From: Escherichia coli
GTDB taxonomy: Bacteria; Pseudomonadota; Gammaproteobacteria; Enterobacterales; Enterobacteriaceae
Reading direction: 5' to 3' (one strand)
Length of the DNA stretch: 64,000 bases
Assembly (NCBI RefSeq): GCF_030013595.1
Contig: NZ_CP122768.1
Positions within the stretch are counted from its first letter, which is position 1; every line of letters starts with the position of its first letter. The position numbers are program-made. Below, piece by piece: positions 18,001-24,000 of this stretch.

Positions 18001-21000
18001 ACATCGCTGTTAATACTGACATTGCAACCAGAGTCAGAGGTACTTGTTTATTGTATTGAGCTTTAATTATTGCCTTCCCTATCATTGATGGTCATGCATA
18101 TACTGAATACGACATATCCGGTTTGATGTAAGGCATAAATGCTTCCTTTTTCGTAATACGTTTCGGTTATAGCAGCAATTACCGCTACAATAGCGACAAT
18201 AGCTGCTCTTTCAACAATGAATGCTGGAAATTCTGTTTATCAATTAAACTTCTGGCTAAATTGTTCTTATGCTTCTTTTTCCTCCTGAGGTGATCACGTG
18301 ATGACAAAAACTTATCTGCTCATGGTCATATCTGAAGAAAGCGTATGTCTCACTTCGTCATTAACACCTTTGACTGCTGATCTGGCAGGTACAGTATGTA
18401 AAGTAAGCCATTCGTCAATAGCTGATGAACGCCAGCCCACAGAACCACTACCAAGACGTACCGGCCTGGGGAAGGTTGCATCGTAGTATTTCGATAACGG
18501 ATTCATTTTTTCGTAAATTGTCGAACGAGATATACCTAACAATTGGCTCAGTTCAGGCATCCGTAAGATGCGTGAAGGAGTCCTGCAGTGTCCGGATTGA
18601 TCTGGCATTTTATCCCCCATAGTGTGGTGAACTGTCGTTACAGTTTGTATTCCCCGGGTAAATTTGTCTGCGTAAAAAAATGGGTTGAGAAAAAAGACAA
18701 TAAATAATTAAAAATCAATATGATAGAAAACGACAGCATTAGTGTTATTTTACTTTTCCCTTATCGCTGTCGATTCTCATTATCATTCATGGCAAAAAAA
18801 CAGCAAAAGAGGCCCTGGTAATGACTCCTGTCAGTAGTACATGTGTTTTCGATAAATGAACCAATGGCTTTTCGTGAATTTCCAGGGAGCGTAAAAAGCA
18901 AATCGTTTTCCGGGCAGGTCGTTTGATGTGAGTACGAAGTGTCAGATTGTTGCGCTCAATGCGCCGGGTAAATATCTTGCCGACAAGATGCTTATCCTGT
19001 GGCATTTCTCTGGTATAACTGCTCCGGTTGTCTCTGGTTATCATGCCTGCGGAGAATGGCTTCAGGAATTCCGGCAACTCACGGCATGTTTCATCAGTGC
19101 GAGGACCAAAAGTGTAAGCCAGCACACCGTCAGCTTTGGTCTTATACGCGTACCAGTGCCACTGCTGACGAGCTTTGTTTTCGACAAAACTCCATTGTTC
19201 ATCAAGTTCACAGATAAGTGCCACATCGACACTGGCGGCTGGAGATATGGTTACTTTACGTGGTGAGCGTTTTTTAAAGTGAGAATGACGGTGTTGATAT
19301 CCACCTTCAGCGTTCTGGAGCTATCGCGAACCCCGGCTCCGTTATGAACCATTTCAACAATTTGCTCTTTAATGCCTGGTTTTCGGGTTTCGTAGATGTA
19401 ATTCAGTTGAAATACACGTTTGCAGGATTAGCACTGGAAACGCTCATGATCTGAGGTGCTGTGATCATAACGGTACACTTTATAGGAATTACAGCGGGGA
19501 GAATATACTGTAACTGTTGCCATATGGTCTCCAGATACCAATAGAATACAACATTAATCTATCGTCAGAAGGCATCACCGGGGCCTTCTGACATAATCTG
19601 TTAATACGTGTACTATTACCCTGTTCAGAAAATATTGATTCAAAAATGAAAACCAGTTAACAGAAAAGCAAAATGATATAATGTTAAAATTTTATATAGC
19701 GCAATAAAAGGAGAATGTTATGTATAATTTTATCACTATAATGTATGATGTCTTTTCATGTTTTGGTGTTCTGGCTAAAAACCAGAATAGCCGTGACATC
19801 CGAAATATTAAAAATTTTTCCTCACATCAACATTCACTGGGCGACATGTTTGATGAATTAATAAACATTATTGATAAAGAACAAGTATTGAGTAAAGAAC
19901 AACGAAAAGTTATATTTAGGAGATATGAAGATCTCTATGTTAAGCTAATGCACTATTCTGTTTTTACAGACAAAACACATCAAATAATAAAACAAAAATA
20001 TTTTAATGACATTGTACCAATGATTCTCGCACTCGACATCAGGAACACATATCGCCCGGATAATGAGATGGCATTTTACTATCATATTCATTCTTTTCTC
20101 ACTCAGATACCGGATAATGAGGATGATATATATCATGCTGCAAGGACATATCTGCGAAATTACGTTAAGTTATGTTTATCCGGATACACGCCAGCGAATG
20201 CGCATTTCAAAGATATCTTTGATGGCGTATATGAATTCATTCGTAATATTCGCAAAAACAGTACACCAGGAAAAACAAAACTTATCGCAACTATCAACAC
20301 ATGCAAAGAAACCTGTAAACATCTGCTTTATTTAAGTAATGAAGACAAGGAAAAAATAATTTCTGACTTAGATAAAGTTCAGGTTGCATGTTATTATCTC
20401 ACTATATTACTGGCTTTCGAAAGACGAACTTCATTAACAAGCATCCTGGCAACTTTATATAAAATGCTGATAAGCGAAAGAGAAGTTTCAGAATATGAAT
20501 GCCAGTTATTATATTTAACCAACCCAATAGATGTAATGAATATACTGAACAAATACATATATTACTTTCCTAATGAGAACTCACCATTTTATACACTGAA
20601 AATTGACAGTGCATTATCGTGGGATGCCATTGACGCAATACGAGACTATAGTATTTCTGATATTTATCTTTATCCTGAACAAAAAACAATAAATTGTGTC
20701 GTTGAGATTGAAAACATTGTCTTTGGCGGTTACATTTATACATTGAACAACGGCGTCACATTACAAAACATAGAAAACTCTTTAAAAGATTCTTCATGCC
20801 ATTATGTCTTAAATGGCTATACAGAATTTGTTAACTGTTTGAGACAACTTACTTCAGGAAAGACTGAAAGTGTTCATCGCACCATCAATAAACTGAACTA
20901 TGAGAAATTACCTTTTGGATTTATCATTGCCGCGTTTGCTATACTAAAGATAGCATTTAAAATAAAATTCAGTAAAAATCATGTAAATATCCGAGCATTA

Positions 21001-24000
21001 TTAAATGACATCAATTATTTTATGACTTATCAGGGCGAGTCCATTAACCTTATTTCACTGGATCACGAATACCCAGAGTCCTGTCTTCAAAATGACACAA
21101 ACACATATTTATTAGGAAGAGTAATATTTCTGTATAACTCAATGATTTATAAGTTCATAAACTGTCAGGAACATGAAACCAATAACATTCACTCAGCTAT
21201 GATAAATAACCTATTACAGGAAGTTGATATAGCCCTTGGTAAAATAAATGACATTATAGACAGCAGAAACATATCAGCCCCCCATGAACTGGCAAATATT
21301 CTTACCCGCGAAAAAATACTTACAACACGGGAAAAAAAAGGAAACCTGATAAGCCTGTTTGATGGATTCACTTTATTCCATTGTGTTGGAATGATAACCT
21401 TTCTTATCCATTATCTCAGAACACCTGAAGAAAAAGTTGAAAATATATTTATGTTATATGGTGCAGATAAAAACAATAAACTACGCAGAAGACTGATTTA
21501 TGACGCACTAGGAATAATTCAGTCTCAGCAGGAGTGAAGAGTTAAACAGGCAAATTATTTTTTATAAAAAGGGGATTGTTAAGTAATCCCCTGTTAATCA
21601 AAATACGCTTTCCTGACGATCTGATAATTATCAGCTCAATACATTTGACATAAAAGCGGTTTCTTAATTACTACTGCTACGATCACATATCAAATCATGA
21701 TCGTACAATATACATTTTCACTATTATTTATTCACAATTTGAGACATCACATAATCCGCCCATGCCTGCATCATCGGTACACGCTGCTCCAGTAGATCAG
21801 TACGATGATATGCCGCCTCAACCTTATTTTTCAGCGTATGAGCGAGCGCCCTTTCCGCCAGATCCCGCGAATACCCCTGTTCGCTACACCAGTCCCTGAA
21901 TGTTGAGCGAAAACCATGTGCCGTGGCAACTCGCCCCGGAATGTCACTGCCGGCTTTCTTTTTACGCAGAAAACTTGTCAACACCATATCGGAAAGGATC
22001 TGCTGCTTTCTGGGTGAAGGGAACACCAGTTCATCATGCAGGCCACGTATATTTTCCAGAATGTAAATAGCCTGCCGGGATAAAGGAACACGATGCTGTA
22101 TCCTGGCTTTCATTCTTTCTGCAGGTATAGTCCATACCCGCTTATGAAAATCAATTTCAGCCCAGCGCATTCCCCTGGCTTCGCCCGAGCGAGTTGCTGT
22201 AAGTATCACCATTAATAACAGTGCGCGGGTAACATTATAAGGTTCATCGGTATACACACTGGTCGCCACAAAAAGCGGTAACTGCCTCCAGGGCATTGCG
22301 GGTTGGTGTTCATCACGTCCTCTTGTCTGCTGAGGAAGCAAATGGTCAACCACATCAACAGGATTTGCTACACAAAAACCGTGCGCCCATCCCCACTGCA
22401 TAACAACATGAATGCGCTGTTTAACCCGGCTTGCCGTTTCTGACAAGGTTAACCAGACTGGACGCAGTGTTTCTGCCACGTCCGCAGCCGTAATCGAATC
22501 CAGCGTTTTTGCTCCCAGTTGAGGAAACGCGTAATTCTCAAGCGTCGATAACCACTGCCTTACATGCTTTGGATTTTCCCATCCAGGAGACAGTTCTGCA
22601 TGTACACGCCTGGCTGCATCGGCAAATGTTGGGATAGCGACTTTCTCAGATTCAGCCTTTTTAATCTCCAGAGGATCATCACCTGCAGCAAGTTGCTCTC
22701 GCATTATCCGGGCAGTACGTGCAGCTTCAGCAATACTGACCTCTGGGTAAGTTCCCAATCCAGCATTACGTCTTTTTTGTGTCACCGGACTTACATAACG
22801 AAAAACCCATTTCCCCCGCCCCTTTACTGAAGAAGGATGAAGGGTCAGTCCGGTAATTCCCCCATGGGGCAATGGTTTGTCATCAGGTTTGATATGTCTT
22901 GCTTTCGTATCCGTCAATACTGCCATACGCTAATTCCCGTCACTCTGGTATGCCATCCAGTATGCCATTAGTCTCTCGCTTCACTAAGAATACATTAGAT
23001 AATATCGGACAACAAAAAGTGTAATACATTGTTTATAATGAAATTATATAACACCCCTGGATTAAGTCAGATTTATTTCAGGCGGTCCCCCTCACCGCCA
23101 TATTTAAAGAAAAGCTCGTACGAAAGTGCGAGCTTTTTTTTCGCATATTGCACTCCAGGGGGGATGAGAAGCCCCGACCGGGGTTCGACAACTGGCGCAG
23201 CCAGTTGGACAGACCACGAACGCAGTGAGTGGGCTGCCCGCAGGGCGAGCGAAGCGAGTCAATCCCCCCTCACCGCCATATTCAAAGAAGAGCTCGTACG
23301 AAAGTACGAGTTTTTTTTCGCATTTTATCTGCCTGTACGGCAGTGAACGGTATAAAAATCGAGTTTTTCTTTCGGTTGGCTTTCTAAGCTGCCTGTACGG
23401 CAGTGAACTCAAATACTACACGTCTAGCCCGTTGTTAATAAAGCAAAACCATCTCATTTTCCTGCTCCCCCCCCTTTTTTATCCTTACCTTCCCGCAGCA
23501 CTAATTATCAACAAATTACCATCATCATCAAAAAAAGGGTCTGAACCTCCTCCACCCCATAAACAAAAAGTCCGTAACCTCTTTCGAGATTACGGACTTC
23601 ACCAACCTACCTAACAATTAGATTAATGCGCTGCTTCCGCCTTGTGCTTTTGTGCACTCTGGAATCCGTAAGTCAGCTCATTTTTCTCTTTATCCAGCGC
23701 GACGGTGACCTGACCGCCGTCCACCAGCGAACCAAACAGCAATTCGTTGGCGAGCGGTTTTTTCAGGTTGTCCTGGATGACACGCGCCATCGGACGTGCG
23801 CCCATTGCCCGGTCGTAACCTTTCTCGGCCAGCCAGTTACGCGCTTCCTGGCTCACTTCCAGAGAAACACCTTTCTGATCCAGCTGAACCTGCAACTCGA
23901 CGATGAATTTATCCACTACCTGATGGATCACGTCGGTGGAGAGATGATCGAACCAGATAATGTTGTCGAGACGGTTACGAAACTCCGGCGTAAAGATCTT

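Follow-up and report, generated by a model that had tools for sequence, protein, structure and literature searches.

Which kind of gene lies next to the integrase of the tellurite/urease island of Escherichia coli, and is it passing cargo or a fixed part of the element? In the 64,000 nucleotides of contig NZ_CP122768.1 (assembly GCF_030013595.1) analysed here, referred to as the window, this place is taken by an open reading frame (ORF) of 605 codons at 19720-21537 on the plus strand, designated X. The region is the integrase end of the island known as SpLE1 in strain Sakai and OI-43/48 in EDL933, with a related serX island in CFT073; the island in the window abuts clpA. A reading made from the sequence alone (the sequence-only reading) had described X as an orphan in a variable, integrase-proximal cargo slot and as a candidate single-gene defence or toxin/effector protein. 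Comparison of X with its distant relatives leads to a different picture, in which X looks like the fixed divergent partner of an alpA-DUF3987(yfjI)-yfjJ gene block in islands with P4-type integrases, and not like random cargo. Tentatively, we favour a role for X as a specificity-determining regulator or sensor of island activation. A role in defence or as an effector seems somewhat less probable.

X is a real gene with reported expression. Its GC content is 0.324, as compared with 0.485 for the window and 0.42-0.49 for neighbouring island genes. Given this base composition, 7.7% of codons should be stops, and the probability of an open run of 605 codons is ~1e-21. The start codon, preceded by a Shine-Dalgarno sequence (Table 1), is supported by homology, as alignments with all distant relatives begin at residue 1-4; the sequence-only description of X as a well-initiated, AT-rich ORF stands. 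Ratios of non-synonymous to synonymous substitution rates (dN/dS, omega) for moderately diverged alleles and orthologues are 0.18-0.27, so that X is protein-coding and under constraint; the values resemble those for the adjacent DUF3987 gene (0.17-0.23) and exceed the 0.06 obtained for the integrase gene, int. A frameshifted allele (CP061244, 88% identity) was left out of these calculations. The X protein was detected by mass spectrometry in EDL933, as listed in a proteome table, and a literature search on X returned nothing beyond that table. Of 5426 complete E. coli genomes, 1030 contain X at a coverage of at least 80%, nearly all of them with at least 99% identity, and the full-length 605-aa form is dominant, with a cluster of 8897 sequences and the exact sequence on at least 1000 contigs. 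It was not found in the phage collection searched, and Rfam places no RNA family in or beside the ORF. An extended -10-like element upstream of X is a candidate local promoter; it was not listed by a two-hexamer promoter scan because it lacks a good -35 sequence.

The designation of X as an orphan holds only for rapid searches. A word-indexed homologue search recovered only E. coli alleles with at least 91% identity and, with the single sequence or a profile as query, gave neither a family extension nor informative names. An exhaustive HMMER search of 1.84 billion representatives, however, returned 34 matches, of which ~15 are full-length (568-663 aa) and 21-35% identical to X. Foldseek searches of AFDB50 recovered the same family, with all members annotated as 'uncharacterized', from Leclercia, Pantoea, Hafnia, Shigella, Salmonella, Providencia, Edwardsiella and Proteus, and from Aeromonas, Tolumonas and one Burkholderia. 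A genome scan with a 6-sequence alignment added relatives in Edwardsiella hoshinae, Kluyvera, Xenorhabdus, Enterobacter cloacae and Citrobacter koseri. The absence of a recognisable family, as first stated from the sequence alone, was confirmed. With the single sequence or the profile as query, the best matches in Pfam, NCBIfam and PHROGs have E values of 0.14 or higher, none above a family threshold; none of 16 family members has a Pfam match at E <= 0.001, and searches of PDB sequences with X and with the family profile gave no match. The family is undescribed, with X annotated only as hypothetical and no Pfam or NCBIfam model, and, as far as our searches show, the strict linkage to alpA, the promoter motif and the palindrome documented below are also undescribed.

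Relatives with 21-35% identity to X are divergent from an AlpA(PF05930)-DUF3987(-YagK_YfjJ) block at all 22 loci examined. These loci represent ~10 sequence types, from Edwardsiella, Kluyvera, Xenorhabdus, Enterobacter, Citrobacter, Aeromonas, E. coli and metagenomes. The gap between alpA and the X gene is ~60-250 bp, usually ~100 bp, and this divergent arrangement is kept even for the weakest matches, P0051 (E 2e-5) and P0054 (E 4e-4). X was not seen away from alpA at these loci and occurs only on mobile elements, and no homology to a housekeeping or known non-defence family came to light. In the window, X does lie between the integrase, which is convergent with it, and the rest of the island, upstream of X, as originally noted; among the relatives the integrase is on either side of the block and in most does not adjoin X. 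The idea of a variable slot is true only in part, as unrelated genes take this place in some E. coli islands but the position of X is fixed relative to alpA-DUF3987-yfjJ at the loci of all its relatives. In the most distant X-bearing element, a gene for the element's own H-NS paralogue (L037:4399-4800) flanks the YfjJ-DUF3987-AlpA-X block, which is of note in view of the AT-richness of X described below.

Recognisable defence genes vary on the outer flanks of the block, not within it. They include CHAT, type I restriction-modification (RM) and SMC-like ATPase genes, SLATT/GAP1/DO-GTPase systems, DUF4062, Abi_alpha and Abi_C genes, and type III RM systems. Their abundance directly beside the block nevertheless speaks for the alternative that X is itself a stand-alone anti-phage, abortive-infection or inter-element exclusion protein that senses an invader and blocks infection or kills the cell, as does the precedent of small int-alpA-DUF3987 satellites with new one-gene defences, for example up2 of PICMI (PMC10803314). 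We consider this alternative somewhat doubtful, given that X is never away from alpA in the 22 loci, in contrast to real cargo, including the 545-aa family described next.

In E. coli, the integrase-proximal segment may hold genes unrelated to X, an observation that also counts towards a defence role. The order in K-12 CP4-57 is intA-yfjH<->alpA-yfjI-yfjJ, and in thrW-type islands, in which yfjI has ~90% nucleotide identity to that of the window, there is a different alpA, and an unrelated 545-aa gene plus a small gene replace X. Homology of X to YfjH or to the 545-aa family was considered and rejected (BLASTP E 0.4 or worse, hhalign probability 0.1%). The entire int-(slot gene)-alpA segment is thus what is exchanged in E. 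coli, with int-X-alpA swapping as a unit relative to yfjI-yfjJ. The 545-aa type belongs to a family of ~540-aa proteins, here family B, preceded by a small divergent gene and without Pfam or PADLOC matches. Since family B is also found away from alpA, inside the tra region of a Proteus integrative and conjugative element (ICE), and in an int-alpA-RepA island of Vibrio, its behaviour, unlike that of X, is that of mobile cargo; it forms a mobile two-gene cassette and could function as a defence or addiction module.

Within its constant position, X is hypervariable relative to its neighbours. Between loci L009 and L012, AlpA and DUF3987 are 93% and 92% identical, respectively, whereas X is 39% identical; the DNA is 92% identical up to a point 50-100 nt into X, and identity is regained at the palindrome that follows the gene. 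Other pairs have the same but weaker trend, as for L005 and L019, with values of 99% (AlpA), 94% (DUF3987) and 83% (X). At least three X types, with ~30% mutual identity, exist in E. coli, namely the window type, the P0026 type, which is present in 226-234 E. coli genomes in the canonical 100-bp arrangement, and the P0027 type. To judge from the sequences, such variation inside a conserved frame is the pattern that would be expected of specificity determinants. X also has the lowest GC content of any gene in the block at all 11 loci; the low value thus characterises the family and does not indicate that X was acquired recently. Both hypervariability and AT-richness are also points in favour of a defence gene.

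Two conserved DNA elements bracket the variable gene. The intergenic region shared by alpA and X in the relatives has a motif, ...TGTCCCCGTAAAAAAACGGAAACCAACCGGAG-ATG, located just upstream of the X start, that is found only beside X-type alpA genes and is absent from CP4-57 and from islands of the 545-aa type. In the window, the motif is stranded beside alpA (also written TGTCNNCGTNNAAAANNGG on the plus strand; Table 1). A small hairpin within this 5' motif was considered but dropped, as the pairing is only 3-5 bp and inconsistent. Beyond the gene, 10-80 bases past the X stop codon, there is a perfect palindrome, CTGCTAC-N4-GCTAC..GTAGC-N4-GTAGCAG, with arms of 14-23 bp. It was found in 12 of 12 readable loci, from Enterobacterales and Aeromonas veronii, and is degenerate in the most distant locus. 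In 11 aligned copies, 8 of 16 pairs have changed on both sides, as compensatory changes, and none of 15 core pairs is broken.

The palindrome might terminate transcription or stabilise mRNA, bind a protein, mark a recombination boundary, or form a site resembling an origin of replication (ori) or of transfer (oriT) for the YfjJ initiator. The last of these options underlies a further alternative, that X is an accessory protein for replication or transfer that works at the palindrome together with YfjJ, as an initiator of the Gp2/HUH type, and the helicase-like DUF3987 protein. The conserved position of the palindrome directly 3' of X and the replication-type proteins encoded by the block are consistent with this, and in related alpA-type integrative mobilizable elements inverted repeats of 17-20 bp beside nic sites are the oriT recognition elements (bioRxiv 10.64898/2026.01.12.698999). 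A site-specific factor would not, however, be expected to vary far more than its site or the replication proteins, as X does, and X persists in the window, where the palindrome has been lost. With these objections, and with other functions available for the palindrome, an accessory role of this kind seems quite improbable.

The X protein itself looks non-enzymatic, as judged from the sequence alignment. A confident AlphaFold2 (AF2) model based on a 16-sequence alignment (predicted local distance difference test (pLDDT) score 84, predicted template modelling (pTM) score 0.84) is all-alpha, with 29 helices, and has no informative match to PDB structures and none in BFVD (viral structures). Seven columns are invariant across the 16 sequences (I177, L231, Y367, I415, N473, L499 and K508), of which K508 is the sole charged residue, and no catalytic-type motif or residue constellation is kept. 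The best-conserved stretch, residues 397-473, conforms to LPxGY...ALKIKL...DANNxTIxR...YN. An HD- or HEPN-like active site, suggested by FYxHIH, ALDI and HQ motifs, was rejected, as P0030 and P0031 are without the His residues. The proposal of a defence protein or toxin thus received no support from the protein: no nuclease, NADase, protease, kinase or pore-type domain, toxin domain or conserved catalytic residue was found, X has no structural relative among solved or viral structures and no consistent transmembrane segment, and a search of PADLOC-DB 2.0.0 (2023) with X gave no family at E <= 1, with no match for P0051, YfjH or the 545-aa slot protein either.

Sakai ECs1300, which is X, is annotated as 'membrane protein', as are UniRef entries, and residues 397-415 (LPFGFIIAAFAILKIAFKI), with a mean Kyte-Doolittle value of 2.04, do exceed the usual threshold. 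In 13 of 15 relatives, however, this stretch reaches only 1.0-1.8; no further stretch is hydrophobic throughout the family, and the N-terminus does not look like a signal peptide. In the compact AF2 model these residues form a high-confidence helix (pLDDT ~95). This hydrophobic helix explains the label, which is not supported across the family by the Kyte-Doolittle scan, and that X is an integral membrane protein is very improbable indeed.

Some members of the family hint at an action directed at DNA. P0051 from Aeromonas veronii (L015:2467-5067), a distant homologue of 866 aa, is extended at its N-terminus by 300 aa with similarity to transposases of the IS481 family (NCBIfam E 2.5e-11; PHROG transposase E 0.002). 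The extension has no Pfam match and, by eye, the residues at the expected catalytic Asp positions do not fit. Foldseek also matched a 930-aa E. coli protein annotated as a helix-turn-helix (HTH) domain protein.

A regulator or sensor fits best with the combination of a fixed position, a shared control region, the palindrome, hypervariability, a non-enzymatic appearance, the absence of solved or viral structural matches and an occurrence only on mobile elements. Further points in its favour are that the identity of X follows that of AlpA (Spearman 0.82) more closely than that of DUF3987 (0.67), that int-X-alpA is exchanged as a unit in E. coli, that X is under purifying selection much like DUF3987, and that the protein was detected in EDL933. 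As such, X would gate the AlpA switch without enzymatic activity, by keeping the island quiescent or by licensing its activation, and would respond to a variable partner, possibly a protein encoded by a helper phage or plasmid or by a competing element. In this role, X may be physically linked to AlpA or to DNA. A bolder version, which we consider unlikely, is that X is a gatekeeper with a new fold for AlpA-controlled islands and satellites of Gram-negative Bacteria. Its hypervariable body would recognise proteins of phages, plasmids or rival elements and so time the alpA operon, and its alleles would swap between promoter and palindrome; X would then resemble Stl (see below) in function but be an unrelated protein.

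Several observations weigh against a regulatory role. No DNA-binding domain was detectable in X by Pfam, profile or structure searches, and ~600 aa is large for a repressor. At the Xenorhabdus locus L022, X is split whereas AlpA, DUF3987 and YfjJ are intact, so that X is dispensable for keeping the alpA block. Correlated distances between neighbouring genes are expected from linkage alone, and defence genes, too, are typically hypervariable and AT-rich; indeed, every evolutionary signature of X would suit a defence or exclusion protein just as well. In the window and in the CFT073 arrangement, the X ORF persists although an IS1 remnant separates it from alpA, which fits an alpA-independent role, such as defence, equally well. 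Finally, there are 15 non-synonymous and 3 synonymous changes between X and the CFT073 allele (omega ~1.3, from 18 changes only) which, together with C-terminally truncated alleles, suggest relaxed constraint on X in E. coli.

These last observations raise the question of whether the copy of X in the window still functions. The ancestral X-alpA arrangement is degraded here. The IS1 remnant, present at the same place in CFT073, and extra AT-rich DNA put X ~1 kb from the alpA control region, and only a weak candidate for a remnant of the post-X palindrome is recognisable (Table 1). The yfjI gene is frameshifted and split into ORFs of 282 and 194 aa, as compared with the intact 477-aa gene of O26:H11 11368; strain ETEC1746 has this gene in identical form. 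With the IS1 remnant, the loss of the palindrome and the frameshifted yfjI, the local copy of X may have lost some or all of its activity, although the protein is made. Alleles with 92-95% identity to X are truncated by frameshifts in a C6 or an A8 tract (Table 1), which could be slippage-prone switches or simply reflect decay, and insertions of insertion sequences (IS) occur in some strains. All of these features, and the excess of non-synonymous changes relative to CFT073, would be explained if the local X were a decaying relic without current function, a reading compatible with any of the others for the family at large. Against this, the 605-aa form dominates, omega is 0.18 over 520 codons in comparison with a 92% identical allele, X has its own Shine-Dalgarno sequence and extended -10 element and the protein was detected, while the omega of 1.3 rests on small counts. 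We therefore regard a relic as distinctly unlikely.

The order of genes in the window island, with a P4-type int, AlpA (PF05930), DUF3987 and YagK/YfjJ, is that of a CP4-57-type core, in which YfjI and AlpA are 41% and 52% identical, respectively, to their K-12 CP4-57 counterparts. The likeness to P4 does not extend beyond the P4-type integrase: no psu, sid or delta gene is present in the island annotations (int, X, alpA-like, yfjI, yfjJ, an IS-excision enhancer (IEE), IS, ure and others), with no hidden Markov model search aimed at P4 genes having been made. Beyond the integrase, RtT-like repeats are located at the island/chromosome junction (23144-23278 on the plus strand, RF00391, 48.5 bits; a similar copy at ~23045-23149) and are also present at the junction of the O26 11368 island, although that island occupies another place in the chromosome. 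Two CRISPR type I-F repeats (23321-23348 and 23381-23408, minus strand; Rfam CRISPR-DR4, 29.7 and 50.1 bits) lie between the integrase and clpA, a position that we take to match the CRISPR3/4 remnant of the E. coli clpA-infA region.

Table 1. Features of the X locus in the window and of related loci (positions without a locus prefix refer to the window; RDF, recombination directionality factor)
Feature	Position	Strand	Remarks
X ORF	19720-21537	+	ATG start, 605 codons
Shine-Dalgarno sequence of X, AAAGGAGA	19707-19714	+	5 nt before ATG
Extended -10-like element, TGATATAAT	19674-19682	+	Candidate local X promoter; perfect extended -10, 38 bases upstream of ATG
C6 tract, codon 520	21278-21283	+	Frameshifts give 541-546-aa truncated alleles
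A8 tract, codon 538	21332-21339	+	Frameshifts give 542-aa truncated alleles (P0019 type)
GC-rich hairpin followed by T-run	21570-21592	-	Likely int terminator; possibly bidirectional, serving convergent X
Possible post-X palindrome remnant	21674-21705		CTGCTAC at 21674-21680 plus 8-bp inverted repeat, 21678-21685 / 21698-21705
P4-type tyrosine integrase gene (ECs1299)	21724-22926	-	400 aa; convergent with X, 186 bp between stops
IS1 transposase pseudogene (ECs1301)	~18831-19523	-	Separates X from alpA control region
Conserved motif, TGTCTGCGTAAAAAAATGG	18665-18683	+	Beside alpA, ~1 kb from X; 1 match in window vs 0.08 expected
AlpA-family (PF05930) regulator/RDF gene (ECs1302)	18312-18608	-	Ancestral divergent partner of X
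yfjI/DUF3987 gene (ECs1303)	16237-17687	-	Frameshifted: 1-nt deletion near 17106
yfjJ/yagK-type gene (ECs1304)	14853-15416	-	Inovirus Gp2-type
IEE gene (ECs1305)	12338-14698	-	Adjoins yfjJ; RefSeq: 'TOTE conflict system archaeo-eukaryotic primase domain-containing protein'
Post-X palindrome copies	L003:5674-5713, L004:11837-11876, L009:11923-11964, L012:12021-12054		
Post-X palindrome copies	L013:11865-11904, L015:5148-5181, L019:9870-9913, L020:3146-3179		
Post-X palindrome copies	L022:9809-9844, L023:7762-7801, L024:9637-9682		
Family B loci	L025:9935-11572; L026, L027, L029, L030; L031:8001-9623; L032:8001-9629		L025, E. coli F11; L031, Vibrio; L032, Proteus-type ICE

Islands with a P4-type integrase and an alpA-DUF3987-yfjJ block carry important determinants of virulence and fitness (tellurite resistance, urease, Iha, uropathogenic E. 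coli pathogenicity islands) and many defence systems. The X family, which about one in four complete E. coli genomes carries, is a candidate for the step that controls AlpA islands; should X turn out to act in defence, it would represent a single-gene system that is new and has no known domain. Either outcome would give a function to a widespread 'hypothetical protein', and the promoter motif and the post-gene palindrome are defined experimental handles.

Known systems resemble the X locus to different degrees. As in P4-like defence hotspots, X is in an element with a P4-type integrase and variable defence systems nearby, but here the defence genes are outside the YfjJ-DUF3987-AlpA-X-palindrome block and X, constant in position, matches no known defence family. 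YfjH of CP4-57 and the family B proteins share with X the slot between the end with the P4-type integrase and alpA, the orientation divergent from alpA and their uncharacterised status; they have no detectable homology to X, and family B is also found away from alpA. In the PICMI int-alpA-DUF3987 elements, many unrelated gene families (iolg/icg) are located between int and alpA and iolg is needed for excision, while how helper phages switch on the alpA regulon of these satellites is described there as an open question (PMC10803314). The iolg genes are, however, co-directional with int, which they overlap or abut, whereas X in the window is convergent with int across a 186-bp gap; neither in size nor in sequence are they related to X.

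In PIME1, a LuxR regulator is encoded divergently from alpA, and deletion of its gene abolishes excision, replication and transfer (bioRxiv 10.64898/2026.01.12.698999). X matches this gene in location and direction with respect to alpA, in both cases in an int-alpA-rep element, but has no LuxR or HTH domain, DUF3987 and YfjJ replace RepA, and no tra/trb genes were seen near X. The Stl master repressor of Staphylococcus pathogenicity islands (SaPIs) is a non-enzymatic protein of ~250-300 aa with an N-terminal HTH, encoded divergently from the excision/replication operon, always present and extremely divergent between related islands. X differs in its ~600 aa, in having no detectable HTH and in the lack of any sequence or structural similarity to Stl. 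The two are nonetheless alike in being divergent single genes with a short control region, a constant presence, extreme divergence and apparently no enzymatic activity. This Stl-type layout with a shared control region, interrupted by the IS1 remnant in the window, is present in the relatives of X, and if the regulatory role tentatively favoured here is correct, X would join the divergent master regulators of integrative elements.

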